A stretch of DNA of 64,000 nucleotides. Source: a virus. The stretch lies in the IMG/VR virus record IMGVR_UViG_3300045988_117710; one strand, 5' to 3'. Shown here piece after piece: positions 423 through 24,547 of this stretch (positions are counted from its first letter, which is position 1; every line of letters starts with the position of its first letter). The notes below the pieces were generated by a model. That model saw nothing but the letters and a program-made list of their open reading frames with translations. It was not told the DNA's origin and searched no databases. The translations under genes were made by a program, and so were the position numbers.

Positions 423-701
423 TTGTTTCTGAATTCTTATATACCAGAGTCTTTCAAGGATTATTTTGTTGATAGTCCATTAAGTGATGATGAGATTTAT
501 ACTTTATTAGAGTTAATGGATTCTTTATATACTGTTAGACAGTATTCTGATTTAATTTATAATGGTAGTTCTAATATTTCTTTTAATTCTTGTAGTAAGA
601 TAATTAAGAATGAAGAGGAGTATGAGAGAATAAATGAGGTTGTTATTCCTGCTTTGTTGTCAGATATTTATAATTTATTAGGAGGTGGTTCTGATGAGTA
701 A
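423..701 (+). CDS. hypothetical protein
   Basis: ORF track; tightly packed with neighbours on the same strand. Confidence 0.35.
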   Translation: MFLNSYIPESFKDYFVDSPLSDDEIYTLLELMDSLYTVRQYSDLIYNGSSNISFNSCSKIIKNEEEYERINEVVIPALLSDIYNLLGGGSDE

Positions 702-1830
702 AGTTATTGATGTTCAACCAATTACTCAAGATGAAGAGGTTTTGTCTAAAGAGACAAGTGTTGTTAAGGCAACTAATGAATCAACATTTGTTGTTGATCA
801 GCAGTTAGCTAGATTGAATAAGGATGAACTTAAGCAAGTTAAGGAGCTTAAGAAATCTATTAATTTTGATTCTACTGTGGACTTATTACATTATGGTAAT
901 GAGTTAGGTCAAAGGAGAGAAGCATTTTCTGATGCAATTCTTCAGAAGTATAAGAATAAGGATATTACATCTGTTGGAGATACTCTTACTGGGTTGGTTA
1001 CTTCTCTTAAGGAGTATCAAGTTGAAGAGTCTGATGGTTTCTTTTCTAGATTGTTCAGACGTGGTAAGAATAAGATTGAAACCATGAGAATCAAATATGA
1101 TAATGTTAATGAGAATGTTAATAAGGTTGCAGGGAAGTTAGAGAATGAAATTATTACTTTAACTAATGATATTCAGTTATTAGATAAACTTTATAATAAG
1201 AATATTGATGCTTTTAAAGAGCATACTATATTTATTATTGCTGCTAAACAACGTTTAGATGAAGTTAGAAATAATGAGTTAATGGATTTAAGAATTAAGG
1301 CAGAAGAAACTAATTTGCCAGAGGATGCTGAAGAGTATAGAAATTTAGTATCTAAATGTGATACTTTTGAGAAGTATATTTATGATTTAGAGTTATCTAG
1401 GACTTTATGTTTACTTTCTTTACCTAGATTAAAGGCAATTCAAGCTGCAAATGAAGTGTTGGTTCAAAAGATTAGAACCACTATTACTACAACTATTCCT
1501 ATGTGGAAGGATACTATTGCTAATGCTGTTATTGCTGAGAATACTAAGAAGTCTTTATCTATTCAGAATGCTGTTGATGATGCAACTAATCAAATGCTTA
1601 AGAGAATGGCTGATGTTTCTAAAGAAGTTTCAGTTGGAGCTACTAAGGCAAGTCAACGTGGTGTTGTAGATATGGATACTATGAAGTATATGTATGAGAA
1701 AGTTTTAGAAACTGCTAATGAGATGAGACAAATTGAAGAAGAGGGTAGAGCTACTAGAGAGCAAAGTGAACGTGAATTGCTTTCTATGGAGCAAGAATAC
1801 TCTGGTAGTTTGGTGGATTATTCTAAATAG
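685..1830 (+). CDS. TelA-like (toxic anion resistance/KlaA family) protein, putative
   Basis: 381 aa helical protein; segments LLHYGNELGQRREAFS, FFSRLFRRGKNKIE and KLYNKNIDAFKEHTIFIIAAKQRL resemble TelA family conserved blocks as recalled; not verifiable without a search. Confidence 0.4.
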   Translation: MVLMSKVIDVQPITQDEEVLSKETSVVKATNESTFVVDQQLARLNKDELKQVKELKKSINFDSTVDLLHYGNELGQRREAFSDAILQKYKNKDITSVGDTLTGLVTSLKEYQVEESDGFFSRLFRRGKNKIETMRIKYDNVNENVNKVAGKLENEIITLTNDIQLLDKLYNKNIDAFKEHTIFIIAAKQRLDEVRNNELMDLRIKAEETNLPEDAEEYRNLVSKCDTFEKYIYDLELSRTLCLLSLPRLKAIQAANEVLVQKIRTTITTTIPMWKDTIANAVIAENTKKSLSIQNAVDDATNQMLKRMADVSKEVSVGATKASQRGVVDMDTMKYMYEKVLETANEMRQIEEEGRATREQSERELLSMEQEYSGSLVDYSK

Positions 1831-1870: not shown

Positions 1871-2659
1871 ATGAAACTTATTCGTGATGGTGTATTTGAA
1901 ACTAATTCAAGTAGTACTCATGCTCTTGTTATTCCTCATAAGGTAGATGAAGAGCATTATGAGTTATATGATAGTTTAGACCATGATTATGGTTTTGGTC
2001 GTTGTGAGAGTAAATTAGTTGAATCTTGGGATGAGAAGTTAGCTTATGTCTATTATGTTCTTAAGGATTTCCTAGATTGGAATTCTGCTTCTGAAGATAA
2101 TGATAGAAAGGGTATGGTAACTGCAGAATCTATTATTGAGTTTGAAACTAAGATTAATAATATTTATACTAGTATGGTTGATTCTGGTAAGTTTAATATT
2201 TATCCTGATTCTGAACCAACTCCTCAAGATATTTTTGATTTAATTAATAATAAGAGTACTGAAAGAACTAAGAGTATTTTTCCTAGAGGTGGTTGGAATT
2301 GGGTTGGTGTAGATCATACTGAAGATTTTGCTACTAATGGTTTTGTTATAAGATTATTAGAAGCAGATGAAGAGTTTCTTAAGAGATTTATTTTCAATCG
2401 TGATAGTTATATTACTGTTGGTGGTGATGAGTATCGTGGTTATAATATTAAGACAGTTGGTTTTGAGTCTGATTATGATTGGCATGATACTTATTATGTA
2501 AATGCTAAAGGTGAGAAGATGCCAGAATACGATCCTGATAATATTGATATGGATGAGTGGAGAAGAATTCATGAAGAGTATTGCATTCCACGTGGTGGGT
2601 TCTGGGACAAACTTGCTGAGTATGAGAAGGATAATGATGTTTATCTGAAGGGTAATTAG
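1871..2659 (+). CDS. hypothetical protein, FETNSSSTH-motif family (paralog A)
   Basis: N-terminus MKLIRDGVFETNSSSTH nearly identical to MKLVREAAFETNSSSTH at 52703; Trp/Asp-rich C-terminal half. Confidence 0.5.
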   Translation: MKLIRDGVFETNSSSTHALVIPHKVDEEHYELYDSLDHDYGFGRCESKLVESWDEKLAYVYYVLKDFLDWNSASEDNDRKGMVTAESIIEFETKINNIYTSMVDSGKFNIYPDSEPTPQDIFDLINNKSTERTKSIFPRGGWNWVGVDHTEDFATNGFVIRLLEADEEFLKRFIFNRDSYITVGGDEYRGYNIKTVGFESDYDWHDTYYVNAKGEKMPEYDPDNIDMDEWRRIHEEYCIPRGGFWDKLAEYEKDNDVYLKGN

Positions 2660-2678: not shown

Positions 2679-3875
2679 GTGAAAGAATTTAAAGATATGA
2701 TTATGAAGGAAGCAAAGGAAGAGATGTTAGCTTTACAACATCCTTATGTAGATTCATCTCATTTAATGTTAGCTTTACTTCGTTCTAGTGATTTCGGTGG
2801 TTCAAGAGAGTTTATGATGCGTCATGGTATTTCTTATGAGTTGTTCTATGATACTATAATAGAAGTAATTGGTAAGGGTACGGTAGAGGATAAGAATACT
2901 CCTTATACTCCTGCTCTTAAACAAGTATTGAGTGCTTATACAGGAATGGCAAAGAAGAGACAGAGTGATGATCCTTCGTTAATTATGTTATTATGTTTAC
3001 TTCAGTTCTATGAAGGTGTTGGTATTCGTTTATTGATGAATATCGGTGTTGATATAGATGATTTAATTGAGGACCTTGAAGAGTTATTGGATAATTCTTT
3101 AGATAAGTTACTTAAGAAGTATGGATGTCTTACTGATTTAAATAAAGAAGTTCGTGAGAATAACACAGTGGTTACTGGGTTGGATGAGCAATTACAACAA
3201 TTGTGTAAGTATCTTTTAAAGATTCAGAAACCTAATGTTATTGTTTTAGGTGAACCTGGTGTTGGTAAGACAGCTCTTGTTGAGAAGTTAGCTGTTGCTA
3301 TTAATGAGAAGAAAGTTCCTAAGTTTCTTCAGGATTTAAGAGTTATTCAATTATCTTTAGGTTCTGCAGTTGCTGGTACTAAGTATCGTGGTGAATTTGA
3401 AGAGAAGATTAATGGAATAATTGAAGCGATGACTAAGAAACGTAATGTTATTCTATTTATTGATGAGATTCATATGATGGTAGGTGCTGGTGGAGCCGAA
3501 GGTGCTATTGATGCTTCTAATCTATTTAAACCGGTATTAGCTCGTGGTAAGATTAGAATGATTGGTGCAACTACTAATACAGAGTATAAAGAGTTTGTAT
3601 GTTCTGATAAGGCATTTGCTAGACGTTTCAATACTATTGAGATTCTAGAAACTACTGAAGAAGAGACTATGGCAATTTTATCTAAAGCAAAGGTTAAGCT
3701 TGAGAAACATTATGAGATTAAGCTTACTCATAATGATTTGGTTAAGGTTTATAAGGAAGCTACTCATAGAAGTGGTAGAATGCCAGATGTTGCTTTAGAT
3801 GCTTTAGAGGAATATTGTGTTGACCTTTATTATAATAGAGAGTCAGAGAAGGAAACTGAAGAGGTGAGTGTTTAA
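2679..3875 (+). CDS. Clp-type AAA+ ATPase (Clp_N repeats plus single D1 nucleotide-binding domain)
   Basis: Clp N-domain repeats (HLMLALL, SLIMLLCLL); Walker A GEPGVGKTALVEKLA; Walker B ILFIDEIHMMVGAG; KYRGEFEEK and ARGKIRMIGATT match the ClpA/B/C D1 domain; no second AAA domain. Confidence 0.75.
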   Translation: MKEFKDMIMKEAKEEMLALQHPYVDSSHLMLALLRSSDFGGSREFMMRHGISYELFYDTIIEVIGKGTVEDKNTPYTPALKQVLSAYTGMAKKRQSDDPSLIMLLCLLQFYEGVGIRLLMNIGVDIDDLIEDLEELLDNSLDKLLKKYGCLTDLNKEVRENNTVVTGLDEQLQQLCKYLLKIQKPNVIVLGEPGVGKTALVEKLAVAINEKKVPKFLQDLRVIQLSLGSAVAGTKYRGEFEEKINGIIEAMTKKRNVILFIDEIHMMVGAGGAEGAIDASNLFKPVLARGKIRMIGATTNTEYKEFVCSDKAFARRFNTIEILETTEEETMAILSKAKVKLEKHYEIKLTHNDLVKVYKEATHRSGRMPDVALDALEEYCVDLYYNRESEKETEEVSV

Positions 3876-4525
3876 TGAGTGTTATTATTGCAAAGAAGAT
3901 TAAGAATGGTTTTGTTTTAGCAGGTGATTCTCAAGGTACTGTTGGTACTCATAGAACTACTGTTACTAAGATATTTAAAGCTCCTAAAGAGGAGAATGTA
4001 TTTATTGGTGTGGTTGGTAGATTACGTGATGCTAATATAGTTGCATCTGTAGATAGTATTTTAGATTCCAATGCTATTCGAAGAGGTAACTTGGACGCTA
4101 ATAGTTTAGTTTCTTATACTGTTCCTGAACTTCAGAAGTCTTTAAAGGAACAAGGTGCTTTATCTGTTGATGGTGGATTGCTTTGTTGGAATTCTGAAAT
4201 TATTATTGTTTATAAAGATAAGGCATTCTTAATTGATTCAGACTTTTGTGTTATTGAGATAGATGATTTTGCTGCAATTGGTGCTCCACAGGATTTTGCT
4301 TATGGTGCATATGCAATTCTTAAGAAGTTTAAATCTAAGTTACCTAAGTTGTCTGATTTTGATTTAGTCAAAGAGATTATGAAGATGACTATTGAAGAAA
4401 CTATTCATGTGTTCTATCCTATTTGGATGGTTGATACTAGTACAACTAATGCAGATTTCATAGAATTCAAGGGTTCAATTGTTGAGGAAAAGAAATCTAC
4501 AAAAGATAGTAAGGAAGAGGAATAA
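3875..4525 (+). CDS. hslV: HslV-like Ntn-hydrolase peptidase (proteasome beta-like)
   Basis: N-terminus [24 protein letters not shown] aligns with HslV [41 protein letters not shown] aligns with IAIGSGGPYAQAAARAL; Ser replaces Thr at the nucleophile position; start overlaps the ATPase stop (ATGA). Confidence 0.65.
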   Translation: [216 protein letters not shown]

Positions 4526-4537
4526 CTCTTCCTTTTA

Positions 4538-4549
4538 TCGTATTATAAT
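4538..4549 (+). promoter_or_regulatory. promoter-like motif variant TCGTATTATAAT
   Basis: After terminator hairpin AAGGAAGAG/CTCTTCCTT (4511-4534); upstream of ORF 4564. Confidence 0.4.
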
Positions 4550-4563
4550 GTAGAGGTGATTTT

Positions 4564-5262
4564 ATGAATGAAGTTAAAGACGAATTTCATTTTAGAGATT
4601 TGAAGGCAGATGAGATTACTGTTAAGGCATTTCCAATTGATAATGGCATTTCAGTTATTCTTTATAAAGATGCTAGAGTTGATATGACTATTCTTAATGA
4701 AACTGTAGGTCCTAAGAATTGGACTAGACTTTATCCTCATGGAGCTGCTTATTGTGAAGTATCTATTTGGGATGCTGATAAGAATGCTTGGATAACTAAA
4801 GGTGATTATGGTCAATGTGATTTTGGTACTAATTCAGAGAAAGGAACTGCTTCTGATTCATTCAAGAGAGCATGTTTTAACTGGGGCATAGGAATCGAAT
4901 TATATACTTGCCCTGTCATTTGTATTCCGAAGCATTTTGTGACGACTGTGGCTGCTAAAATGGGCTTAAAAGTGGTTGATGAGCTTTATGTTTCAGAGTT
5001 CAAAGTTAAGGATCATGTTATTACTGATATTTCAGTTGTTAGTAAACTTTCTGGTCAACTTATTTACTGTTTTAAGAATGGAGCAGAGGTTAAAGTAGAA
5101 CCTAAACTTACTTATCAAAATCAATTAAGAGTTTTCATTAGTGGTATTGAGGGATTGACTATTTCAGATGTTGCTCAAGAGTTTAAGCTTAATGGAACTT
5201 CTTCTGAAGATGAATTCAAGTCTGCTTTGGATAAGTTGAAGGAAAGGTATAATGCGAAGTAA
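4564..5262 (+). CDS. Rad52/Sak-like single-strand annealing protein
   Basis: Motif TASDSFKRACFNWGIGIELY matches the Rad52-family signature (SDAxKRA...GIGRYLY). Confidence 0.7.
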   Translation: MNEVKDEFHFRDLKADEITVKAFPIDNGISVILYKDARVDMTILNETVGPKNWTRLYPHGAAYCEVSIWDADKNAWITKGDYGQCDFGTNSEKGTASDSFKRACFNWGIGIELYTCPVICIPKHFVTTVAAKMGLKVVDELYVSEFKVKDHVITDISVVSKLSGQLIYCFKNGAEVKVEPKLTYQNQLRVFISGIEGLTISDVAQEFKLNGTSSEDEFKSALDKLKERYNAK

Positions 5263-5887
5263 TGGTTTAAGAATTGGTGGAAGTGATATTCCTACTTTGT
5301 TAGGTATTAATCCATTCAAGGATTTATATACTTTACTTCTTGAGAAGTGTAAGTTTAAAGAAGTTGTATTTGAAGATAATGATTTTACTTTATATGGGAA
5401 AGCAATTGAACCTTTAATTAGGGATTATCTTAATTCAGAAATGTTTAAGGATAATCCTATTGCTCCTTATGACTTCTGGGAGAATGAATTAGGTTTTGTT
5501 TCTAGGACTGATGGTAAGAATACTAATACTATTGTGGAGATTAAGTCTACATCTGTAACTCATAATACTGCAGATGAATATATGAATTATTTATGTCAAT
5601 TGATATTCTATATTTGGAGGTTGTCATTGAGAGATGGTTTCACTTATCGTGGTGTTCTTGCTATTTATGAGCGACCAAAGGATTTTAGAAATCAGTTACC
5701 TGATAAGGTTGTTTTTGATCCAAGTCGTTTACAAGTGTTTGAAGTAAATTTTGATCGTTATCAAGATAATGTTTTGGTAAGTATTAAGACAGCAATAGAT
5801 AATTTTGATTATTATGCTAATAGACTTAATGAGGATCCATTTCTAACAGAATCAGAGTTATTTGGTACAAATGTTGTCATCGAATAA
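5252..5887 (+). CDS. YqaJ/lambda-Exo-like PD-(D/E)XK recombination exonuclease
   Basis: N-terminal IGGSDIPTLLGINPFK resembles the YqaJ motif IGGSDxxxxxGxSPYK; VEIKST (E-x-K); directly downstream of the annealase. Confidence 0.6.
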   Translation: MRSNGLRIGGSDIPTLLGINPFKDLYTLLLEKCKFKEVVFEDNDFTLYGKAIEPLIRDYLNSEMFKDNPIAPYDFWENELGFVSRTDGKNTNTIVEIKSTSVTHNTADEYMNYLCQLIFYIWRLSLRDGFTYRGVLAIYERPKDFRNQLPDKVVFDPSRLQVFEVNFDRYQDNVLVSIKTAIDNFDYYANRLNEDPFLTESELFGTNVVIE

Positions 5888-6171: not shown

Positions 6172-6186
6172 TTGAAAGGATTATTT

Positions 6187-6630
6187 ATGAAGATTATTCT
6201 AGATGAAGATGTTAAGGGTAAAGGTAAGAAAGGTCAGATGATAGAAGTTGCTGATGGTTATGGTTCTTTTCTTATCAGAAGTAAGAAGGCATCTTTAGCT
6301 ACTGAAGGTGTTATCAATAAGTGGAAGAGAATTCATGAAGAAGAAACTTTACAAGATAATTTGATTAGAAAAGAAGCAACTAATCTAAAGAATTTGATTG
6401 AGAAAGAAACATTTACTTTTAAGGTTAAAGCTGAAAATGGTAAGGTGTTTGGTTCTATTACAAGTTCTGATGTTGCAAAGAAACTTAATGAGAAGTATTC
6501 AAATCAAACTATTAAGATTGAGAAGAAGGATATAACTATTCCTAAGACTTCTACTTTAGGTGTTTATCAAGCCAAGGTAGTTCTTTACAAGGATATTGTA
6601 GCTGTGGCTTCTATTAATGTTTCTGAATAA
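6187..6630 (+). CDS. rplI: ribosomal protein bL9 homolog
   Basis: MKIILDEDVKGKGKKGQMIEVADGYGSFLI aligns with E. coli L9 [31 protein letters not shown]; length 147 aa; RBS AAAGGA 6 nt upstream of ATG 6187 (track ORF starts at TTG 6172). Confidence 0.8.
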   Translation: MKIILDEDVKGKGKKGQMIEVADGYGSFLIRSKKASLATEGVINKWKRIHEEETLQDNLIRKEATNLKNLIEKETFTFKVKAENGKVFGSITSSDVAKKLNEKYSNQTIKIEKKDITIPKTSTLGVYQAKVVLYKDIVAVASINVSE

Positions 6631-7225: not shown

Positions 7226-7517
7226 CTTGGAAGAATTTAAACCAAGAGATTTTTCAACTATTGCTCGTCAGATACAAGATGTTATTGAAAGAGATTGTAC
7301 TTTCAGTAGTTGCAGGAGACGAGAATTAATTAATGAAATTGATAGGTGTATCAAAGATAACTTTTATCGAGCTCCAGAATTAGCTTTCGAGAGTTGGAAT
7401 GATTTAGCAAATGTTCTTAATTCCTATTTAGTCCCAAGTAATTCTAGATGGGAGACAGAGATTATGTGTATCTTTGGTGATTTAGGACCTGTTGATGATT
7501 ATTGGGATGGTGATTAG
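7215..7517 (+). CDS. hypothetical protein
   Basis: ORF track. Confidence 0.4.
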   Translation: MVISLEEFKPRDFSTIARQIQDVIERDCTFSSCRRRELINEIDRCIKDNFYRAPELAFESWNDLANVLNSYLVPSNSRWETEIMCIFGDLGPVDDYWDGD

Positions 7518-7518
7518 T

Positions 7519-8349
7519 ATGGGAAAGGAAAAGAAGAATACTTTAGGAACAAGGATGAAGGAGTATGAAGCTGTTAGTAAGAATCATCTGATGAGAAGAA
7601 CTCCTGTTGTTATAAGATTGGATGGTAAAGCATTTCATACTTTTACTAGAGGTTTAAATAAACCTTTTGATTCTGATTTTGTTACTATGATGCAACAAAC
7701 TATGTTACATTTATGTGAGAATATTCAAGGATGTGTTTTAGGTTATACTCAATCTGATGAGATTACTTTAGTCCTTGTTGATTATCAGAATAGAGATTCT
7801 TGTGCTTGGTTTGATAATCAAGTTCAAAAGATTGCTAGTATTAGTGCTAGTATGGCTACTCTATACTTTAATAGAGAGTTGTCTGAAATGTTGAGAGATT
7901 TAGAAGAGGATTTGGCTGCTGCGGATTATAGTTTACCTCAAGCTCATATGTATGAAACTAATTCAAAGAAGTATGATAAGTGGTATGATAAAGAGTATAG
8001 AGCTGTGTTTGATTCTAGGGTGTTTAATTTACCTCAATATGAAGTTATTAATAATTTGATTTGGAGACAGCAAGATGCAACTAGAAATTCTATTAATAGT
8101 GTTGCTCAAAGTCTTTTCTCACATAAGGAACTTCAAGGTATTAGTAGTAAGGATCTTCAGAATAAGATGTTAACAGAGAGGGATGTCAATTGGAATGATT
8201 ATCCAACACATCTTAAACGTGGTTGTTGTGCGATTAAGGATTCTGAAGGTAAGTGGGTTTTAGATATCAATATTCCTATTTTTACTGAAGATAGAAATTA
8301 TATTGATAGGTTGGTCTTTTTAGAGGATGGTGAAGAGAATGCTATTTAA
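7519..8349 (+). CDS. Thg1-like protein (tRNA-His guanylyltransferase family 3'-5' nucleotidyltransferase)
   Basis: VVIRLDGKAFHTF matches Thg1 VVVRLDGRNFHRF; GYTQSDEITLVL matches AYGQSDEYSFVF; ASISASMATLYF matches ASQFASSYVFYW; start uncertain (7519 or 7555). Confidence 0.75.
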   Translation: MGKEKKNTLGTRMKEYEAVSKNHLMRRTPVVIRLDGKAFHTFTRGLNKPFDSDFVTMMQQTMLHLCENIQGCVLGYTQSDEITLVLVDYQNRDSCAWFDNQVQKIASISASMATLYFNRELSEMLRDLEEDLAAADYSLPQAHMYETNSKKYDKWYDKEYRAVFDSRVFNLPQYEVINNLIWRQQDATRNSINSVAQSLFSHKELQGISSKDLQNKMLTERDVNWNDYPTHLKRGCCAIKDSEGKWVLDINIPIFTEDRNYIDRLVFLEDGEENAI

Positions 8350-13379: not shown

Positions 13380-13562
13380 ATGAAAAAGTTACGTAGAAGT
13401 ACTAAAGATTATTGTTTTATGGGAGTATGTGGTGGTTTAGCTGAGTATTTCGATATTGATTCTAGTATCGTTCGTCTTATTTGGTTAGCTGCTGTGTTAT
13501 TTTTTGGCTCTGGTATTTTATTATACTTGATTATGTGTTTAGTATTACCGAAGGAGGTGTAA
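13380..13562 (+). CDS. PspC-domain membrane protein
   Basis: [38 protein letters not shown] matches the PspC domain ([20 protein letters not shown]...GGSGILLYI); RBS GGAGG upstream of ATG 13380. Confidence 0.7.
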
Positions 13563-13564
13563 TT

Positions 13565-15796
13565 ATGAAGATACAAAAGAGAAGTGGAAAGATAGTTGAT
13601 TTTGATGAAGTTAAAATTGGTATTGTTTTAGATAAAGCTTTTTCTGACTTTCCAGATATTGAAGCCAAAGATGTGAAGAAAGCCAAGAGTGCTATTATAT
13701 CAGTTATTCGTGAGGAAGCTGCTTTACATCAAGATGATGAACTTTTCTCTGTTGAAGATTGTCAAGATTTAATTCAATCTACCATGCGTAAGTTAGGTTA
13801 TCGTAAGGTTGCTAATAAGTTTAAAGAGGTTCGTGAAGAGAGAGCTTTCAATAGAGAACTTACTGTAGTTTTTGATGCATTGTCTAATAAGGATACTGAA
13901 GAGAAGACAGATAATGCTAATGTTAATGGATATACTCCATCTGGTAGACATCTTCATGTTTCTGAAGAAGTTATTAAGCTTCATTCTATGAGAGAAGTGT
14001 TTAGTAAGGATGTTGTGAAGGCCGTAAAGCGTGGAGATTTCTATATTCATGACAGAGGGTGGACTGGTACTGGTTCTTTAACTTGTTGTCAAATTGACTT
14101 AGAAAAGCTTCTTAAAGGTGGTTTTTCAACTGGTCATGGTTGGTTACGTGAACCATCTAATATTAAGACTGCAATGTTACAAGCTGCAATAGCAATTCAG
14201 TCTAATCAAAATGACCAACATGGTGGTCAATCTGTTTATAATTTTGATTTATATATGGCTCCTTATCTTATGAAGTCTTATAGAAAACATATTTTAGACC
14301 AATTATATTCTTTTGTTAGATATAGTGGTTATGATTTAGAGTTAGATGAAGAATATATTGAACAATATATTAAGGATCCAAATACTATTACTGATTTTAC
14401 TGTAGATGCTGGTGCTAAAGCTCTTTATGAGTGGACTCCAGAAACTAAGAAGAATTTATTTATGAATGTAGATCTTATGGATACTTATGTTAAGATTTGT
14501 ACTGAAGCTCATAGAAAGACTGTTGATGATACAAATCAAGCTGCAGAGTCTATTGTTCACAATTTAAACTCTATGGCATCTCGTGCTGGTAGTCAAGTTC
14601 CATTTAGTTCTATTAACTTTGGTTTAGGTTCTGATGAGGCAAGTAGACAAGTTTCTATTTCTTTACTTAAGGCACAAATGGATGGTTTAGGTAATCATGA
14701 GACACCTATATTCCCAATTCTTATTTATGAGTTAAAGAAAGGTATTAATTTTAATCCTGAAGATCCTAACTATGATATATTCAGATTAGCAATGGAATGT
14801 TCTAGTAAGAGATTATTCCCAACTTATGCTTTTATGGATGCTTCATTTAATTTACCTTTATTCAATCAAGATCCTGTAACATTTAAGAATATTGTTGCTT
14901 ATATGGGTTGTAGAACTCGTTTAGGAACTAATTGTAATGGTAAAGAGGGTTCTGGTTCTAGAGGTAATTTATCATTTAATACTATTAATTTACCTTTATT
15001 AGCATTAGATTCTAAAGGTAATATAGATAAGTTTTATAAGTTGTTACAAAACACTTTAGAGTTATGTGATAAAGCTCTTTTAGAAAGATTTGAATTACAA
15101 TGTCAATTCCAAAAGAGAAATTTCCCAAGTCTTATGGGACAAGGTATTTGGATGGATTCTGATGATTTAGATGATTTTGATGAAGTTCGTTCTGTCCTTA
15201 AGCATGGAAGTTTAGGTATTGGATTTGTTGGTTTAGCTGAATGTCTTAAGGTTCTTACAGGTAAACATCATGGTGAATCTAAAGAAGCTGATAAGTTAGG
15301 TTATGAGATTGTTAAGTATATGAAAGATTATACTGATAGACGTACTAAAGAGATGAAACTTAACTATGCTACTTTAGCAACTCCTGCTGAAACTTTATGT
15401 AAGACAGCATTAGAGCAAACAAGAAGAATCTATGGAGTTATTGAAGGTGTTACTGATAGAGCTTACTTCACTAATTCAATGCATGTTCCTGTTTATTATA
15501 ACATTCATGTAGATGAGAAGATGAAGATTGAAGGAAAGTATCACAAGTTATGTAATGGTGGTCATATTGCATATGTAGAAGTAGATGGAGATATTAGTCA
15601 AAATCTAGATGCTTTCGAAGAGATTCTACATATTATGTCTGATAATGATGTTGGATATGGTGCAATCAATATTCCAATTATAGAGTGTCCTATATGTCAT
15701 CATAGTTTTAGAGGTAGTTCAGATATACACATTTGTCCTAACTGTTCTTACGATGAATTAGTAGGAATAGATATAGATTGTGATTGTGGAAAGTAG
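13565..15796 (+). CDS. nrdD: anaerobic ribonucleoside-triphosphate reductase NrdD (class III), lacking the C-terminal glycyl-radical segment
   Basis: N-terminal ATP cone (MKIQKRSGKIVDFDEV); MGCRTRLG active-site region; C-terminal Zn ribbon CPICHH...CPNCS; no RxxGY motif before the stop at 15796. Confidence 0.85.
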   Translation: MKIQKRSGKIVDFDEVKIGIVLDKAFSDFPDIEAKDVKKAKSAIISVIREEAALHQDDELFSVEDCQDLIQSTMRKLGYRKVANKFKEVREERAFNRELTVVFDALSNKDTEEKTDNANVNGYTPSGRHLHVSEEVIKLHSMREVFSKDVVKAVKRGDFYIHDRGWTGTGSLTCCQIDLEKLLKGGFSTGHGWLREPSNIKTAMLQAAIAIQSNQNDQHGGQSVYNFDLYMAPYLMKSYRKHILDQLYSFVRYSGYDLELDEEYIEQYIKDPNTITDFTVDAGAKALYEWTPETKKNLFMNVDLMDTYVKICTEAHRKTVDDTNQAAESIVHNLNSMASRAGSQVPFSSINFGLGSDEASRQVSISLLKAQMDGLGNHETPIFPILIYELKKGINFNPEDPNYDIFRLAMECSSKRLFPTYAFMDASFNLPLFNQDPVTFKNIVAYMGCRTRLGTNCNGKEGSGSRGNLSFNTINLPLLALDSKGNIDKFYKLLQNTLELCDKALLERFELQCQFQKRNFPSLMGQGIWMDSDDLDDFDEVRSVLKHGSLGIGFVGLAECLKVLTGKHHGESKEADKLGYEIVKYMKDYTDRRTKEMKLNYATLATPAETLCKTALEQTRRIYGVIEGVTDRAYFTNSMHVPVYYNIHVDEKMKIEGKYHKLCNGGHIAYVEVDGDISQNLDAFEEILHIMSDNDVGYGAINIPIIECPICHHSFRGSSDIHICPNCSYDELVGIDIDCDCGK

Positions 15797-18382: not shown

Positions 18383-18768
18383 GGGGATGTTCTGGTTTCG
18401 ACAGTAGGAATGTCATTATGATTGCATGCAGTAGGTTGCTACTTTAAAGGACAAAAACAATAAATGCAAATTTCAAAAACTTTATAGCAAATGTTAAAGC
18501 TTCTTTAGCAAATATGTTTGCTGCTCCAGTTGTAGCTTAGTATAAAACAACTTATCTATAAGAAGATTTACATATGGATGTTCTTATAGATATCGTATAA
18601 ACATATGTAAGACATTGAGGATCCAATAGTCAATGTTTTAATTTATTGGGTAGGTTAAACTTATTGTAGGTGATTAACCTGTAAGATAATAATTACAATC
18701 AAGCATGTGAATGAAATTGTAGGTTGAGTTTTTATTGGACACGAGTTCAATTCTCGTCATCTCCACCA
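18383..18768 (+). ncRNA. ssrA: tmRNA (SsrA), one-piece
   Basis: 5' end GGGGATGTTCTGGTTTCGACAGTAGG matches the tmRNA consensus GGGGCTGATTCTGGATTCGAC; 3' end GGACACGAGTTCAATTCTCGTCATCTCCACCA gives T-arm plus acceptor with a G3-U70 wobble (Ala identity element); internal tag frame GCA AAT GTT AAA GCT TCT TTA GCA AAT ATG TTT GCT GCT CCA GTT GTA GCT TAG. Confidence 0.8.
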
Positions 18769-18769: not shown

Positions 18770-18843
18770 GCGGGTATCGTTCAGTGGTAGGACCTCTGCC
18801 TTCCAAGCAGACGACGCCGGTTCGAATCCGGCTACCCGCTCCA
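18770..18843 (+). tRNA. tRNA-Gly (anticodon UCC)
   Basis: Manual cloverleaf; anticodon loop CTTCCAA; acceptor GCGGGTA/TACCCGC; encoded CCA. Confidence 0.8.
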
Positions 18844-18847
18844 TTAT

Positions 18848-18921
18848 GGGAGTATAGCCAAGTGGTAAGGCAATGGACTGCAACTCCATGATCGTAGGTT
18901 CAAATCCTACTACTCCCTCCA
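18848..18921 (+). tRNA. tRNA-Cys (anticodon GCA)
   Basis: Manual cloverleaf; loop ACTGCAA; acceptor GGGAGTA/TACTCCC; CCA encoded. Confidence 0.8.
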
Positions 18922-19070
18922 AGGGAAGTACTGTTCTGAAGAACAATTTATATATCTATATAATTCTAAATCCCTGTCATAGAATTATATTAATCGATTA
19001 ACACTGCAGGGTTAATTAGTATGGACAATGCTTTCGAGGTTTTTCATTTTTTACCTCCTTTCTCTTATTT

Positions 19071-19145
19071 GGTCTGTTAGTCTATCGGCTACGACGCTGC
19101 CCTGTCACGGCAGAGGGACGGGGTCAACTCCCGTACAGACCGCCA
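19071..19145 (+). tRNA. tRNA-Asp (anticodon GUC)
   Basis: Manual cloverleaf; loop CTGTCAC; acceptor GGTCTGT/ACAGACC; atypical T-loop GTCAACT. Confidence 0.65.
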
Positions 19146-19150
19146 TTATA

Positions 19151-19223
19151 GGGAAGTAGTTCAATGGTAGAACAGTGGTCTCCAAAACCACGGACGTGGG
19201 TTCGATTCCTACCTTCCCTGCCA
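19151..19223 (+). tRNA. tRNA-Trp (anticodon CCA)
   Basis: Manual cloverleaf; loop CTCCAAA; acceptor GGGAAGT/CTTCCCT. Confidence 0.75.
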
Positions 19224-19234
19224 TTGTGTAATTT

Positions 19235-19287
19235 AAATCAATAAGTTCTCTGAATTTATTGATTTTTTATTTTGGTTGTCGTATAAT
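19235..19287 (+). promoter_or_regulatory. terminator hairpin after tRNA-Trp followed by TTGATT, 17 nt, TATAAT promoter (TCGTATAAT)
   Basis: AAATCAATAA loop TTATTGATTT plus T-run (19235-19270); TTGATT 19259-19264; TCGTATAAT 19279-19287. Confidence 0.5.
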
Positions 19288-19303
19288 GTTTGTAAGGAAG
19301 GTG

Positions 19304-20158
19304 ATGATTGTGGGTAGACCTGCAAAGAAAGAACAACTTATTCAACGTTGTGAAGAACTTAATGTTTTCTATAGTGAGAAGATGACAATTAAGGAATTAG
19401 AAGCACTTATTGCTGATAAGGAAAGAGGAATGGTAGCTCCTGTTGTGATTACTGAAGATATGATGACCCCTTATGAGTATTTTCAAAATGTTAAGGATTC
19501 TATTAAGTCTATGAATGACGATGATCTTACTAAGATGTATACTGCTGCAAGTACTTTAATGGAGAAGTATCAAGTATTTGGTCAAGAGAAGGCAGAGAAG
19601 AGATTAGCATTTCATATCAAGACTATTCTTAAGGAACATGATTTATTACAATTGGGAATTAATAAGTTTGTTTATAAAGATGATATTACTAATTACATAG
19701 ATGTTATTAGTAAGAAGCCAGTTAAAATTATTGAGATGAAGAATTTCCCTAGAGAGATTCCTGATGATATGATTGATGTTGTTACGAAGACTAAAGGTAT
19801 CTTTGATGAGTATTATGTTTTATTTACTGATTACTCTGAAGGTGAATTAGTTAAGGAAGTTGAGAAGGAAAGAGATCCAATTTTATTTGGAGGTTTCTGT
19901 ACTAAGAATAGAGATATTGTTTCTGATAGATTCTATTACTTAGGTGATTGGGTTGATGAGTATTGTGATTTAACTTTAGATAAGCTTATTAAGGAGACTT
20001 CTAAAGATATTGTTAAGACTATTTCTATTCCTACTAATAAGGATAAGTTGATTTCTCAACTTAATGCTTACGAAGAGAAAGGTGATAGGTATATAGTAAA
20101 TACACCTAAGAAAGAACATTTCTTCAGTAAGATTAAGAGAGCTTTTAAGGTTAAGTAG
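19304..20158 (+). CDS. hypothetical protein
   Basis: ORF track (19259) trimmed to ATG 19304 with RBS AAGGAAGG; downstream of promoter motif 19279. Confidence 0.4.
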   Translation: MIVGRPAKKEQLIQRCEELNVFYSEKMTIKELEALIADKERGMVAPVVITEDMMTPYEYFQNVKDSIKSMNDDDLTKMYTAASTLMEKYQVFGQEKAEKRLAFHIKTILKEHDLLQLGINKFVYKDDITNYIDVISKKPVKIIEMKNFPREIPDDMIDVVTKTKGIFDEYYVLFTDYSEGELVKEVEKERDPILFGGFCTKNRDIVSDRFYYLGDWVDEYCDLTLDKLIKETSKDIVKTISIPTNKDKLISQLNAYEEKGDRYIVNTPKKEHFFSKIKRAFKVK

Positions 20159-20159
20159 T

Positions 20160-20723
20160 ATGGCTGTTCCTAGAGATATTGATTTAACTCGTCATCTAGA
20201 TTTTAATAAGGATGAAGTAATAGCCAAGTCTGTTAAGCTTCCAAAGGAAGTTAAGGATACTTCTTATAAGAGATATAATGAGTATGAGAATACTTCCTTT
20301 AGAAGTACTACTAGTTTAACTACTGCACCTGGTTTAGATGATTGGGGTTTAGGTTCTTTTTCAACTAATTTCTCTAGTACAAGTTCTGATTCTTTTAAAC
20401 CTTTTTCTTTAGTTCCTACTATTAAGGTAGAGGAGAGGGTTTGTTGGAGAAAGCTTTATAAGGATCCTAATGTTTTTGAACCTAGGTATACTGCAGATGA
20501 GTGGGTTGAGGTATTTAAGAATAGAAACTTCCCAATGGGTAGTAGGGAAGATAGGATGAAAGTATTTGCAGAAGTTTTGAAGGATAAGTATGATCCTTGG
20601 AAGAATAGATGTGAGAGATGTGGGAAGAAGTTCAATCCTAATAATTGTTTTTCTCATTTCTATGGTTTATGTCAAGATTGTAATATTATTCTAGAAAATC
20701 AAGTTTATTCTGTGAATCTTTAA
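20160..20723 (+). CDS. hypothetical protein with C-terminal Cys cluster
   Basis: ORF track; CERCGKKFNPNNCFSHFYGLCQDCN. Confidence 0.4.
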   Translation: MAVPRDIDLTRHLDFNKDEVIAKSVKLPKEVKDTSYKRYNEYENTSFRSTTSLTTAPGLDDWGLGSFSTNFSSTSSDSFKPFSLVPTIKVEERVCWRKLYKDPNVFEPRYTADEWVEVFKNRNFPMGSREDRMKVFAEVLKDKYDPWKNRCERCGKKFNPNNCFSHFYGLCQDCNIILENQVYSVNL

Positions 20724-20734
20724 GAGGTGATATT

Positions 20735-21025
20735 GTGAAGGATTATCTAGATATAGTTAAGAGATGTAAGGAACAGAATATAGATATTGATGGTTGTCAT
20801 ATTTATATTTATCCTAATAATTTGGATGGGGAGTTTTGTCATAAGGGGACTTTATCACAGGATGGTGAATGGCTTTGTATTCCTTTGAAAAAGTTTGATG
20901 AGTCGTTCGAAATGGATTATTTCGAACCAGTGTGTTACCAAGTTAAAACGTCTTTTAAAACGTATTTAAAGGGTGATTCTCTTTGGTATCTTGTAGAGTG
21001 TTTTGTACTTTATGATAATAATTAA
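20735..21025 (+). CDS. hypothetical protein
   Basis: ORF track; GTG start with RBS AAGAGGTGA. Confidence 0.35.
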   Translation: MKDYLDIVKRCKEQNIDIDGCHIYIYPNNLDGEFCHKGTLSQDGEWLCIPLKKFDESFEMDYFEPVCYQVKTSFKTYLKGDSLWYLVECFVLYDNN

Positions 21026-21030
21026 TTGAG

Positions 21031-21312
21031 GTGATTATAGTGTTGAGTGATACAAATGTTAACTTTATATGTTTTGCAAGTAGGAAGTCTATAAGGAAAT
21101 GGGTAGTTTCTGAAGTTAGATATGATTATGAATGGGATGGATATTGTGTTCATAAGTTAGGTGAGAATGAGTATTGTGAATTTGGAACTCCTTTTGCTGC
21201 TTATAATCATGCAAAGAATATTTCTAATAAGTATAAGAAGAAATACTCTGATGCAGTTGTAATTGTTAAGGAAGTTGGAGTAACAGCGGAGGATCTTGTT
21301 TCGAATGGATAA
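21031..21312 (+). CDS. hypothetical protein
   Basis: ORF track. Confidence 0.35.
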   Translation: MIIVLSDTNVNFICFASRKSIRKWVVSEVRYDYEWDGYCVHKLGENEYCEFGTPFAAYNHAKNISNKYKKKYSDAVVIVKEVGVTAEDLVSNG

Positions 21313-21778
21313 GCCAATTATATTTCTAGATTTTGATGGTGTTGTTGAAACTATTTATTGGGAGAAAGATAAGGACGGTTCTTGGTCTTGGAATGTTCAT
21401 AAGTCTGGGAGAGAAGAACTGAATAATAAACAAGCGATTGGCTGGCTTAATGAGCTTTATAAGAAAGTTCCTTATGACATAGTGGTTTCTAGTACTTGGA
21501 GGATTGGAATGTCTGTTGAAGAGCTTCAAACTCTGATTACTAATTCTGGATTTAATAAAGAAATTAGGGTTTTAGATAAGACTCCTATTCTTTATCAACA
21601 GAGGGGTGTTGAGATTCAGAGATGGATAGATGATAATGATTTTAAAGGGAAGTTCATCATTATAGATGATGATTCTGATATGTGTCATTTACTTCCATTA
21701 CTTGTAAGATGTGATTGTCAGCTTGGTTTTACTATTTATGATTATAATAAAGCATTAAGATTGTTAGATGAATCTTAA
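21296..21778 (+). CDS. HAD-like phosphatase (putative nucleotidase)
   Basis: HAD motifs IIFLDFDGVVET (DxDGV), VVSSTWR, FIIIDDDSD. Confidence 0.5.
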   Translation: MFRMDKPIIFLDFDGVVETIYWEKDKDGSWSWNVHKSGREELNNKQAIGWLNELYKKVPYDIVVSSTWRIGMSVEELQTLITNSGFNKEIRVLDKTPILYQQRGVEIQRWIDDNDFKGKFIIIDDDSDMCHLLPLLVRCDCQLGFTIYDYNKALRLLDES

Positions 21779-21791
21779 GAAAGGATTGTTT

Positions 21792-22019
21792 ATGGATAAG
21801 GTTAATGTTAGAGAGTTGTTTATACTTGCAATGTTTCTTTTGACTACTGTTATTTCTATTGGTCTTTATAATCAGAATATTGGATTAAGAAAGACTATTG
21901 AAGAGAAGGATAAAGAGATTGAAGATTTAACTTTTGATAATTCTCGTTGTAATATGGCTTATGATGAGTTTTATGAATTATTTATGGATTGTGTTTCTTA
22001 TGAGAAGTGTACAGAATAG
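21792..22019 (+). CDS. small membrane protein
   Basis: ORF track (21768) trimmed to ATG 21792 with RBS AAGGA; hydrophobic segment LFILAMFLLTTVISIGLY. Confidence 0.4.
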   Translation: MDKVNVRELFILAMFLLTTVISIGLYNQNIGLRKTIEEKDKEIEDLTFDNSRCNMAYDEFYELFMDCVSYEKCTE

Positions 22020-22020
22020 T

Positions 22021-22029
22021 TCGTATAAT
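22021..22029 (+). promoter_or_regulatory. phage promoter-like motif TCGTATAAT
   Basis: Exact 9-mer 18 nt upstream of ORF 22047. Confidence 0.45.
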
Positions 22030-22046
22030 ATTTATGAGGTGATAAT

Positions 22047-22298
22047 ATGAATGTAAATATTCAATGTGATAAGTGTAAGAATGTATATCCTGGTGATGAT
22101 ATTCTAATGGTTAACAATTTTGGTACTGCAGAACTTGTTGGTGCTATTTGTACTAGTTGTTATAATTCTATTGGTAATTGTGAAGCAGAGTGTTGTGATT
22201 GTTGTGAATCTGATGTTTGTGATGGGCAATTGACTATTGATGATTTCATTGACGATAATGATATTGAGGTTCTAACAGATGTTGACTCTACCTATTAA
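22047..22298 (+). CDS. hypothetical Cys-rich protein
   Basis: ORF track; CDKCKN...CTSCYNSIGNCEAECCDCCESDVCDG; downstream of promoter motif 22021. Confidence 0.4.
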   Translation: MNVNIQCDKCKNVYPGDDILMVNNFGTAELVGAICTSCYNSIGNCEAECCDCCESDVCDGQLTIDDFIDDNDIEVLTDVDSTY

Positions 22299-22617
22299 GA
22301 AGAAATGGTTTGATATGATTCTTTCTGGAGAGAAGAAAGAAGAGTATCGTGAAATTAAACCTTATTATGATTCTAGATTTATAATATTTAAGTCCCAAAG
22401 TGCAAACAATATATTTCAAAGTGCAAATTTATTAACTGGTGAAGTTAATACTTATGAACATTGTCAAGATATTATTTTTAGGAATGGTTATTCTGGTTCT
22501 AGTCCTTGTATTAAGTGTAAGGTTAGTCTATCTCGAGGAGAAGGTAAACCTGAGTGGGGTGCTGAACCTGGTGTTGAGTATTATATCCTTAATATCTTAA
22601 GTGTTGAGAAGTTATAG
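22279..22617 (+). CDS. hypothetical protein, possible ASCH/PUA-like domain
   Basis: KKKWFDMILSGEKKEEYR resembles the ASCH N-terminal motif; weak. Confidence 0.3.
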   Translation: MLTLPIKKKWFDMILSGEKKEEYREIKPYYDSRFIIFKSQSANNIFQSANLLTGEVNTYEHCQDIIFRNGYSGSSPCIKCKVSLSRGEGKPEWGAEPGVEYYILNILSVEKL

Positions 22618-22626
22618 AGGTGTTTT

Positions 22627-22845
22627 ATGAAGTTAGATGAAAATACTTTAATTAGATATACTGTTGAAGATAAGAATGGTGAGATTGTTCAGACGACTTT
22701 TACTTTACAACAAGTTGAAGGTAGTGTTCCTAATTTCTATCAAGCTTTTAAAGATGCTTTAAGAGATTTAGAAGATTTTGATGTTGATAATTCTGAAATT
22801 ATTTCAAGAGAGATTGTGAGTGATTCTGATGAAGAAGATTTATAG
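22627..22845 (+). CDS. hypothetical protein
   Basis: ORF track. Confidence 0.35.
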   Translation: MKLDENTLIRYTVEDKNGEIVQTTFTLQQVEGSVPNFYQAFKDALRDLEDFDVDNSEIISREIVSDSDEEDL

Positions 22846-23281
22846 TAAGTATGACAATATAGGAGATTTAGTAGAAGCTCTTAAGGAAGTTCAAGTTGGT
22901 TCTAAATTCAAGTTCTGGCATGAGAAGAAGAGATATACTTGTATGGGTAGAAGTGAGAACTTTATTATCATTTCTAAACCATTTAATCTGAAAGAAGATT
23001 GTTGTATGTATTCTATTCTTGATCTTACTCAGATGAGATGCAATAGAGATAATCTAGTGTTTGGGATTTATGATTATTCTAATGAAGAAGATTGTAAGGA
23101 TGCATTAGAAGCCCTAGAAAGATCTCTAGTACCATGGGAAGAGAGATTTATTAAGTGTGAACCTGATGAAGATGGAAGAGTAAAACTGATTCCTAAATAT
23201 CCAGAAGCAGACTTTACTTTAGAGATTTCACAACGTGGTGGTGCAAATATTGTTGATGCAATTGAAGAAGTTTATATATAA
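22820..23281 (+). CDS. hypothetical protein
   Basis: ORF track. Confidence 0.4.
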   Translation: MILMKKIYSKYDNIGDLVEALKEVQVGSKFKFWHEKKRYTCMGRSENFIIISKPFNLKEDCCMYSILDLTQMRCNRDNLVFGIYDYSNEEDCKDALEALERSLVPWEERFIKCEPDEDGRVKLIPKYPEADFTLEISQRGGANIVDAIEEVYI

Positions 23282-23287
23282 AATTAG

Positions 23288-23316
23288 TTGACTTTTTATT
23301 TCCTTTGTGTTATATT
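23288..23316 (+). promoter_or_regulatory. sigma70-like promoter (TTGACT, 17 nt, TATATT)
   Basis: TTGACT at 23288-23293, 17-nt spacer, TATATT at 23311-23316. Confidence 0.45.
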
Positions 23317-23349
23317 AAGTTTAGTATATGAGGCATATGAAGTTCCTTG

Positions 23350-23445
23350 GTTAGGTTGTTAACCCGGTAGTCGTAGGTTCGAGTCCTACTCCATACTTCC
23401 GAAAGGTCGGTGGATAGCTCAGTGGATAGAGCACCGTTTACTTCT
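23350..23445 (+). other. two adjacent tRNA-like fragments (3'-type fragment, then 5'-type fragment)
   Basis: 23374-23398 has T-arm GTAGG-TTCGAGT-CCTAC plus acceptor-like TCCATAC but no D-arm upstream; 23407-23436 has acceptor-like CGGTGGA, TA, D-arm GCTC-AGTGGATA-GAGC, then no anticodon or T-arm; acceptor strands only 5/7 complementary. Confidence 0.3.
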
Positions 23446-23519
23446 CGCCTTAATATATTTATAGAACTGAAATATGGACTGTAAAGACTTTTCTTTATAT
23501 ATTATGTTGAGGAGTTTTT

Positions 23520-23972: not shown

Positions 23973-23975
23973 TAT

Positions 23976-24051
23976 GGGCCGATAGCTCAGTTGGTAGAGC
24001 ACGACACTGAAAATGTCGGTGTCGGTGGTTCAATCCCACCTCGGCCCACCA
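23976..24051 (+). tRNA. tRNA-Phe (anticodon GAA)
   Basis: Manual cloverleaf; loop ACTGAAA; acceptor GGGCCGA/TCGGCCC; CCA encoded. Confidence 0.8.
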
Positions 24052-24056
24052 TATAT

Positions 24057-24503: not shown

Positions 24504-24547
24504 TTTGTTATAGATTATAGGAAAGTCATTAAGACTTTCTGATATGT

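Follow-up and report, generated by a model that had tools for sequence, protein, structure and literature searches.

A conserved pair of genes for a D1-only Hsp100-type ATPase and a proteasome-like peptidase in phage DNA

The two overlapping genes and their products

The stretch of virus DNA held as IMG/VR record IMGVR_UViG_3300045988_117710, referred to below at its full length of 64,000 nucleotides as the window, carries two overlapping genes on its plus strand, the first for a short Hsp100-type ATPase with a single AAA+ module of the D1 kind and the second for a proteasome-like peptidase of the N-terminal nucleophile (Ntn) class, as shown in Table 1 together with the other features. The two reading frames have one base in common, the stop codon of the ATPase gene running into the start codon of the peptidase gene, and a preliminary description of this DNA, made from its letters, was right about the overlap and wrong about its sequence, which is TAATG and not ATGA. 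A purine-rich Shine-Dalgarno-like sequence for the peptidase gene lies among the last ATPase codons and is equally placed in the other paired loci of a nine-locus alignment. Because of the stop/start overlap and of the ribosome-binding site of the second gene within the first, the ATPase and the peptidase are apparently co-expressed from one message. The ATPase gene could also start at the ATG codons 7 and 9, giving 392 or 390 amino acids. The last three sense codons of the ATPase, GTG AGT GTT (Val-Ser-Val; window 3865-3883), echo the first three of the peptidase, ATG AGT GTT (Met-Ser-Val), with the shared TAATG alone between the repeated codons, a repetition that could be a minor duplication or a coincidence. 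The peptidase stop codon lies within a 9-bp hairpin, after which, ahead of the next gene at 4564, comes a perfect TATAAT box (window 4511-4548); judging from these patterns, one transcription unit may finish at the hairpin and another begin at the box.

The ATPase aligns with residues 12-397 of Bacillus subtilis ClpC (3j3s; E 1e-63), and the alignment reaches the end of the ATPase, whose C-terminus falls where the M-domain of ClpC begins, with the M-domain, the D2 domain and the ClpP-binding loop lying beyond; nothing matching these three was present in the ATPase in this alignment. The Pfam AAA_lid_9 match likewise spans only positions 1-69 of 104, and the scores against the ClpB and ClpA equivalog models (237 and 232 bits) lie far under the cut-offs of 1232 and 993. 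Among the hallmarks of Class I Hsp100 proteins, the Clp_N N-domain and the D1 module are present, and the D2 domain, M-domain and ClpP-binding loop are missing; D2-like or ClpP-like sequence was also absent elsewhere in the window in tblastn searches with a full-length bacterial homologue and Escherichia coli ClpP as queries. The AlphaFold2 (AF2) model of the ATPase, with a predicted local distance difference test (pLDDT) score of 89.6, exhibits a helical N-domain over residues 2-138, the large and small D1 subdomains and a final long helix at residues 370-397, the counterpart of the ClpC helix that enters the M-domain, in which the last 8 residues have a pLDDT of 56. In Foldseek, the D1 module superposes on the D1 of ClpC, ClpB and ClpA at about 2 Å over about 240 residues with 37-41% identity, and its alignment with ClpC is gap-free from about residue 164. 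The N-domain matches ClpC N-domain structures over residues 7-138 (E about 1e-8), a single Clp_N repeat is detected by Pfam at residues 12-54 (E 5.6e-9), and the first repeat has DSSH in place of the GTEH of ClpC, the second being degenerate. In the pore-1 loop, G233, T234, R237, G238, F240 and E241 are invariant and K235 and Y236 are kept in at least 90% of sequences (n = 40); a GRMPD motif is also present. The reading of a single D1 module with the motifs GEPGVGKT, FIDEIH and KYRGEFEEK, made in the preliminary description, agrees with these results at the places it gave, as does the absence of D2 and of a ClpP-docking loop, since the ClpC alignment stops at residue 397; its two Clp_N repeats stand as a double-repeat fold in the structure matches and in the AF2 model, Pfam seeing only one repeat.

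The short D1-only form is real and not an assembly artefact, because its 90% identity cluster holds 48 member sequences, of which those listed have 390-398 amino acids, on contigs up to 189 kb. A general bacterial family of D1-only proteins is unlikely: the one short bacterial hit with N-domain and D1 that was checked (P0053) is a fragment, and its contig contains many genes that are split by frameshifts. The ATPase is annotated as ClpA by JGI. Those bacterial relatives that carry a name in the search list are of the ClpC type, have about 40-42% identity and come from metagenome-assembled genomes (MAGs) of uncultured gut Bacilli ('Bacilli bacterium').

The peptidase matches Pfam Proteasome PF00227 with 30.5 bits (cut-off 22.4) over residues 4-175 and PHROG 1040, 'peptidase HslV family', with an E of 6.5e-12. 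Its AF2 model (pLDDT 88.3) shows the alpha-beta-beta-alpha sandwich of proteasome beta subunits with flanking helices H1-H4. In PDB, Foldseek placed the model closest to 20S beta subunits and to BPH (5ovs), both with an E of about 5e-10, and Anbu was among the matches as well; E was about 1e-9 and the template modelling (TM) score 0.6-0.8 across these matches (0.69/0.79 for BPH), and no HslV chain was among the best 50. A fold search of BFVD returned many phage proteasome-like proteins. A single-sequence search of PDB gave no meaningful match, and with a profile the matches to HslV and 20S were no better than marginal (E 0.004-0.5). Against the NCBIfam HslV equivalogs, the scores were 18.4 bits for TIGR03692 (cut-off 157.75) and 17.9 bits for NF003964 (cut-off 137), and the GSGG motif of HslV (Ser124 region) is not kept, AIGAP standing in its place. 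Because it reaches 18 bits against a cut-off of 158, the peptidase is, on profile and fold comparison, to be classed as a member of the proteasome family and not as an HslV orthologue, a candidate identity that the equivalog scores and the fold search rule out. The open reading frame (ORF) 3875-4525 had been described beforehand as an HslV-like Ntn hydrolase; the profile and fold searches do place it in the proteasome Ntn family, and the HslV part of that assignment has to be given up, the fold being about equally near 20S beta and BPH. The gene beside it encodes a ClpC-type N-domain with D1 and not HslU, the window as a whole not having been searched for HslU. The GenBank entry of the peptidase, DAW53728.1 (a 'Caudoviricetes sp.' MAG), is named HslV / proteasome subunit.

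The peptidase starts with MSV and no in-frame start is possible further upstream. As methionine aminopeptidase removes Met before small second residues, removal of Met would expose Ser2 as the putative nucleophile. All of 13 close homologues have Ser2, Asp18, Lys32, Gly45/Gly48 and Gly136, and these residues are kept at 92-100% in 146 relatives, of which 92% have Ser and 8% have Thr at position 2. In a profile alignment, Asp18 and Lys32 fall on Asp17 and Lys33 of HslV. These residues agree with the catalytic set Ser/Thr1-Asp17-Lys33-Gly47 listed for the proteasome family (PMC8665760). One peptidase, that of lineage L039 (1187-1840), has Glu for the near-invariant Asp18 (GAESY instead of GxDSQ) and keeps Ser2 as well as the upstream ATPase gene. 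The preliminary description had pointed to Ser in place of the usual Thr; Ser is indeed at the N-terminus, but it is the rule in the phage family and not unusual, because 92% of the family has it and B. subtilis CodW provides a biochemical precedent (Kang 2003, cited in PMC5506225).

Conservation of the pairing and its genomic setting

Relatives of the peptidase were collected by a word-indexed search, which gave 12 close ones, and by an exhaustive profile search, which gave 1711 clusters at E < 1e-3, 8 of them below 1e-30, and thus showed the peptidase to be part of a large proteasome-like family of phages. The close clade comprises the window and lineages L001, L003, L005, L007, L009, L011, L012, L013, L036 and L039, with contigs reaching 194 kb and pairwise peptidase identities of about 35-75% (about 35-69% among the nine aligned). 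A D1-only Hsp100-type ATPase gene lies directly upstream of the peptidase gene, in the same orientation, in 11/11 of these lineages, and in ten of them the two genes overlap by one base or by four, or lie 0-1 nucleotides apart. The exception is L007, where a non-coding stretch of 1.56 kb (4160-5718) with TATATAA-like or 'attatataa' repeats lies exactly between the two genes. Copies identical or nearly identical to those of the window also turn up in many assemblies of gut metagenomes, where their contigs measure about 180-189 kb. This adjacency in all of the divergent lineages, mostly with overlap of stop and start, strongly supports the functional pair proposed in the preliminary description.

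Different results were obtained for the wider peptidase family. A ClpC-like gene was found near the peptidase gene in 0/21 wider-family loci (20 from IMG/VR and L037; up to 5 kb on each side, by tblastn and a family hidden Markov model), the Walker A motif occurred near these loci in two unrelated ORFs only, and P0176, the next-best profile match outside the clade (E 2e-29), has no AAA+ neighbour. The other neighbours of the pair are unstable across lineages, with the FETNSSSTH gene, Thg1 and TelA coming and going. The pairing is a trait of the clade, because the wider-family loci have no ClpC-like gene and the other neighbours are unstable, and the linkage is specific to these two genes and this clade and is not a general neighbourhood effect. 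The pairwise identities of the ATPases and of the peptidases correlate (r = 0.75, 36 pairs), a co-divergence that is weak support for the pairing because any two genes sharing genomes would correlate. The peptidase had no match by tblastn among 50,697 phage records, in which the matches of the ATPase were full-length ClpA/C/B-type genes or host contamination. In IMG/VR, a single-protein scan found nothing and a family-alignment scan found distant, unpaired relatives only; a scan of JGI metagenomes added two loci, one already known; and no relative was found in the GTDB genomes, a search that therefore gave no prophage or host clue.

Several peptidase positions are fixed in the paired clade only, namely K7, G12-F13, R69-R70, S77, T82, F124, P138 and Y181, and these clade-specific substitutions coincide with the presence of the ATPase gene. 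R69 and R70 occur in 87% and 100% of the paired clade as against 0% and 9% of the unpaired family, and position 138 is Pro in 100% of the paired clade (G-x-P) as against Gly in 94% of the unpaired family (G-x-G). In proteasome structure, the H1/H2 side of a beta-type subunit reportedly faces out from the ring pair, where a cap would sit; since Arg69-Arg70 form a short extra helix between H1 and H2, on the side that would face a cap, we infer by analogy that they are a candidate contact site for the ATPase.

Differential conservation was also observed within the ATPases. The D1 module is the best-conserved part across the lineages, with about 52-56% identity to that of the window, and the Walker A and B motifs, the KYRGEFE pore loop, GATT, ARRF and GRMPD are kept in all paired lineages. 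The N-terminal side exists in three forms: Clp_N only (388-425 amino acids), Clp_N with an insert of about 190 amino acids (573-607 amino acids), and a form without Clp_N that has another domain of about 190 amino acids instead (437-441 amino acids). The domain of the third form, referred to as domain X, is homologous to the insert of the second (BLASTP, E down to 4e-16) and has no Pfam match. Because D1 and the peptidase stay constant as the N-terminal domains swap, the arrangement has the pattern expected of a substrate or adaptor receptor on an unfoldase, and it suggests such a role for the N-terminus. The TEH motif in the first repeat of ClpC is reportedly its phospho-arginine site; TEH is kept in several of the homologues, the window ATPase has DSSH, and most lineages have a degenerate second repeat, a pattern by which phospho-arginine recognition by the window N-domain is not supported.

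The window as a whole is phage-like: all ORFs of at least 200 amino acids are on the plus strand, the GC content is about 32% and the GC skew strongly positive, and there are large tRNA arrays and a gene for a tail sheath. The pair sits among genes for TelA, recombination, ribosomal protein L9, Thg1, NrdD, tRNAs and tmRNA (transfer-messenger RNA), and the first recognisable structural gene, for the tail sheath, starts about 26 kb from it. Both neighbours named in the preliminary description, a TelA-like gene and an unknown FETNSSSTH gene, are present as it had them. Homologues of the FETNSSSTH gene lie upstream of the pair in L001 (3373-3990), L003 (2883-3863) and L007 (947-1858), and a cysteine-rich gene of 277-352 amino acids lies between the FETNSSSTH and ATPase genes in 3/4 lineages. 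The FETNSSSTH gene was rejected as an obligatory third component, being confined to the four closest lineages, absent from the more distant paired ones and separated from the pair by the inserted gene in three. A Thg1 gene is again close to the pair in L005, L009 and L036, and NrdD suggests an anaerobic host. The tmRNA gene is followed by 23 tRNA genes (18770-29774) covering most amino acids. At 25956-26030 on the plus strand, ARAGORN reports a tRNA of undetermined identity with the four-base anticodon 'atag' (Rfam tRNA 44 bits), which might suppress frameshifts or stop codons, or might be a miscall.

Table 1. Coordinates of the gene pair, its motifs and codons, and other features of the window; positions in other lineages carry the lineage name
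Feature	Position	Strand	Remarks
D1-only Hsp100-type ATPase gene	2679..3875	+	GTG start, 398 amino acids; ClpC-like N-domain, linker, D1 large and small AAA+ subdomains
N-domain, Clp_N double-repeat fold	2679..3098 (residues 1-140)	+	Pfam Clp_N and ClpC N-domain structures
Walker A GEPGVGKT	3249..3272	+	G-x-P/A-G-V/I-G-K-T core in 9/9 aligned ATPases; several positions invariant, n = 40
Pore-1 loop KYRGEFEEK (AGTKYRGEFEEK)	3381..3407	+	substrate-gripping Tyr of Hsp100 D1
Walker B FIDEIH	3456..3473	+	F260, D262, E263, H265 invariant, n = 40
Sensor-1 GATT and Arg-finger pair in ARRF	3564-3575 and 3618-3629	+	G296, A297, T298, T299, R315, R316, F317 invariant
C-terminal helix and tail CVDLYYNRESEKETEEVSV	3816..3872	+	aromatic pair (YY/YF in most lineages), then variable charged tail
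GAGGTGA, Shine-Dalgarno-like, for peptidase gene	3861..3867	+	within last ATPase codons
TAATG junction	3873..3877	+	ATPase stop TAA 3873-3875 and peptidase start ATG 3875-3877, one base common
Proteasome-like Ser-Ntn peptidase gene	3875..4525	+	ATG start, 216 amino acids
Ser2 codon	3878..3880	+	predicted N-terminal nucleophile after Met removal; invariant in close clade
Asp18 codon (proteasome Asp17 equivalent)	3926..3928	+	99% of family members; aligned to HslV GDGQ
Lys32 codon (proteasome Lys33 equivalent)	3968..3970	+	99% of family members; aligned to HslV Lys33
GVVG with Gly48 (oxyanion-hole Gly47 equivalent)	4007..4018	+	conservation alignments
Arg69-Arg70, short extra helix between H1 and H2 (AF2 helix 65-70)	4079..4084	+	ATPase-paired clade only
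G-A-P replacing G-S-G, Pro138 marking paired clade	4280..4288	+	alignment comparison
9-bp hairpin AAGGAAGAG-GAATAA-CTCTTCCTT	4511..4534	not applicable	spans peptidase stop codon; pattern match only
TelA-family gene	685-1830	+	E 1.8e-78
FETNSSSTH ... DVYLKGN protein, function unknown	1871-2659	+	no Pfam match; PHROG 28997
Erf-like annealing protein and YqaJ-type exonuclease	4564-5887	as window
Ribosomal protein L9 homologue, full-length	6172-6630	+	both Pfam domains, E 1e-14 to 1e-16
Thg1-type tRNA-His guanylyltransferase	7492-8349	+	E 7e-33
Anaerobic ribonucleotide reductase NrdD	13481-15796	as window	E 9e-164
tmRNA	18383-18768	+	Rfam RF00023, 98 bits (cut-off 47); ARAGORN tag ANFKNFIANVKASLANMFAAPVVA
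Domain X-bearing ATPases	L005 4247-6001, L011 5001-6782, L036 3280-5001, L012 5001-6326, L013 5001-6314

A predicted unfoldase-peptidase machine and its alternatives

From the sequences and their gene context, the two genes are read as the halves of a phage-encoded ATP-dependent unfoldase-peptidase machine, a reading that is given an even chance or slightly better. The 398-residue protein would form a single-tier AAA+ ring with a ClpC-type D1 motor in each subunit and the N-terminal receptor domain on top, and this ring would pick proteins through its N-domain, unfold them and feed them into a self-compartmentalising assembly of proteasome-like peptidase rings, whose order could by analogy be 6, as in HslV, or 7, as in BPH. 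Cleavage would proceed through the N-terminal Ser left by removal of Met, with Asp18, Lys32 and Gly48, and from the place of the pair in the non-structural part of the phage genome, host or phage proteins present during infection would be acted upon and not the capsid. Taken further, a D1-type Hsp100 ring would dock on and activate a proteasome-like Ser-Ntn peptidase, as a third coupling, of independent origin, between an AAA+ unfoldase and the proteasome family, next to HslU-HslV and PAN/Mpa/Cdc48-20S, as the first dedicated partner of an 'orphan' proteasome homologue, and as a fully virus-encoded ATP-dependent protease with swappable receptors; this fuller version is held tentatively, its chances being put slightly below even. 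That the machine clears proteins tagged by the phage's own tmRNA is improbable.

Docking is the weak point of the machine reading, the interaction of the two proteins being predicted from gene context, and several observations weigh against it. The ATPase has no IGF-type loop, its D1 has no insertions relative to ClpC, and its tail is variable in length and charge, with neither an HbYX motif nor a hydrophobic end of the HslU type, so that the C-terminal helix and tail remain an unconvincing candidate for a docking element. The recurring Glu/Lys-Val at the C-terminus ('EV') was rejected as a docking motif, its codons lying within or beside the Shine-Dalgarno-like sequence of the next gene. To our knowledge, all characterised Hsp100 proteases contact their peptidase through D2, which is HslU/ClpX-like, and not through D1. 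Function in the wider peptidase family evidently does not depend on a linked ATPase, and the 1.56 kb insert of L007 indicates that tight coupling is not obligatory. On the side of the peptidase, Pro138 and, in the window, Ala137 fall in the motif aligned with GSGG of HslV, and because of the change from Gly to Pro at 138 and of Ala137 in this motif, peptidase activity is not certain.

The alternative that survives best, although it is considered unlikely, is that the two genes are co-transcribed and work separately, the ATPase on its own as a chaperone of the remodelling or holdase type, or as an assembly factor, and the peptidase as an ATP-independent 'uncapped' protease like BPH. Separate functions would fit an ATPase in which no docking element was found, a wider family of peptidases without a linked ATPase and a lineage, L007, that tolerates 1.56 kb between the genes, and it has been argued that many proteasome homologues may act without dedicated unfoldases (Fuchs et al., PMC8665760). 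Such a view is, however, at odds with the adjacency of the two genes in 11/11 lineages at 35-75% identity, mostly with overlap and far tighter than for the other neighbours, and with the clade-specific peptidase changes that coincide with the ATPase.

Interference with the host is a less probable explanation, to which little likelihood is assigned. The N-domain and D1 are clearly derived from ClpC, and uncultured gut Bacilli supply the named bacterial relatives, all of the ClpC type and at about 40-42% identity, so that the fragment might join host ClpC rings or sequester adaptors of the MecA/McsB type and thereby block or redirect ClpCP, the peptidase then being a secondary effector or one unrelated to this role; in ClpA-type proteins it is D1 that drives the assembly of rings, and ClpC loses its repressed resting state together with the M-domain, both of which would suit this role. 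But some lineages exchange Clp_N for the unrelated domain X and keep D1 and the peptidase, the TEH of the first repeat is not conserved, the window having DSSH, and in most lineages the second repeat has degenerated, mixed rings are doubtful at about 40% identity to the host D1, and the strict linkage to the peptidase would be left unexplained.

We know of no prohead protease of the proteasome family, and the pair lies among non-structural genes with the tail sheath about 26 kb off. Virion maturation, with the peptidase as a head- or scaffold-processing protease and the ATPase as an assembly chaperone, is thus very improbable, even though maturation proteases are common in phages and phage ClpA/ClpX-like ATPases have been suggested to aid virion assembly (Iyer et al. 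2021, PMC7824862).

If the machine reading is true, some large gut phages carry their own regulated proteolysis, and the cooperation of a D1-only ring with a peptidase of the bare beta type would represent a new architectural solution among AAA+ proteases. The partners of proteasome-family peptidases known to us are HslU or classic-clade ATPases docking on an alpha ring. The pair would then offer a minimal natural system for how unfoldases joined proteasome-like peptidases and a first clue to what the many uncharacterised proteasome homologues of phages and bacteria do. The exchangeable N-terminal receptors suggest lineage-specific targets, for example host defence or regulatory proteins, a compact and orthogonal degradation system of two genes could become a tool, and the presence in one phage of its own tagging RNA, the tmRNA, and its own putative protease invites the idea of a link.

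Comparison with known systems

The gene pair is real and conserved, and it is apparently undescribed. No description of a D1-only Hsp100 protein paired with a proteasome homologue was found in a full-text literature search centred mostly on genes for phage proteolysis, outside which most subscription journals lie, and the new combination claimed in the preliminary description thus appears undescribed in the literature searched. The nearest counterpart in layout is HslUV (ClpYQ; CodWX in B. subtilis), which likewise consists of two genes, for a single-tier AAA+ ring, predicted in the present case, and for an Ntn peptidase without an alpha ring or a propeptide beyond Met1; CodW also has the N-terminal Ser observed in the window peptidase. 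HslU is a member of the HslU/ClpX-type clade, with an I-domain and a C-terminal tail that serves in docking, whereas the ATPase described here is an Hsp100 D1 module with a Clp_N receptor. Unlike HslV, the window peptidase falls below the equivalog model and has GAP for GSG, and its gene follows that of the ATPase, the reverse of the hslVU order, in which the peptidase comes first.

The 20S proteasomes with PAN, Mpa (ARC) or Cdc48-type ATPases share with the pair the combination of an AAA+ ring and a proteasome-family peptidase, and the Hsp100 D1 is said to belong to the same 'classic' AAA clade as the PAN, Mpa and Cdc48 ATPases, unlike HslU. They differ in that the phage pair has no alpha ring, no HbYX C-terminus, no N-terminal coiled-coil/OB ring and a single homomeric beta type. 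ClpC-ClpP of Firmicutes, with its MecA/McsB adaptors, has the same ClpC-type N-domain and D1 with the same KYRGEFE pore loop; here, the M-domain, D2 and ClpP-binding loop are missing, and the partner is a proteasome-like Ntn peptidase instead of the Ser-His-Asp peptidase ClpP.

Among phages, the ClpA-like ATPases of jumbo phages (Klebsiella phage Muenster and Pseudomonas phage 30-3) are also phage-encoded and of the Hsp100 type, but their genes have about 740-770 codons, about the full two-module length of ClpA, and no gene annotated as a peptidase lies beside them, the neighbours being mostly named 'hypothetical protein'. Phage ClpP, ClpS, ClpA and ClpX have been discussed (PMC7824862), and Salmonella phage pSal-SNUABM-04 has an 'HslV' gene without HslU (PMC7823757); such lone HslV-like genes differ from the pair in being without an ATPase partner. 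Similar in type are the orphan proteasome homologues catalogued in large numbers from bacteria and phages by Fuchs, Alva and Lupas 2021 (PMC8665760), including BPH and the phage-borne PPH and AAH, families that were reported without a co-occurring AAA+ partner. BPH, AAH and PPH resemble the window peptidase in their compact beta-type subunit, the same catalytic set, the lack of a propeptide and their wide presence in phages, whereas the window clade, compared with them by published description, has an AAA+ partner in every lineage examined.

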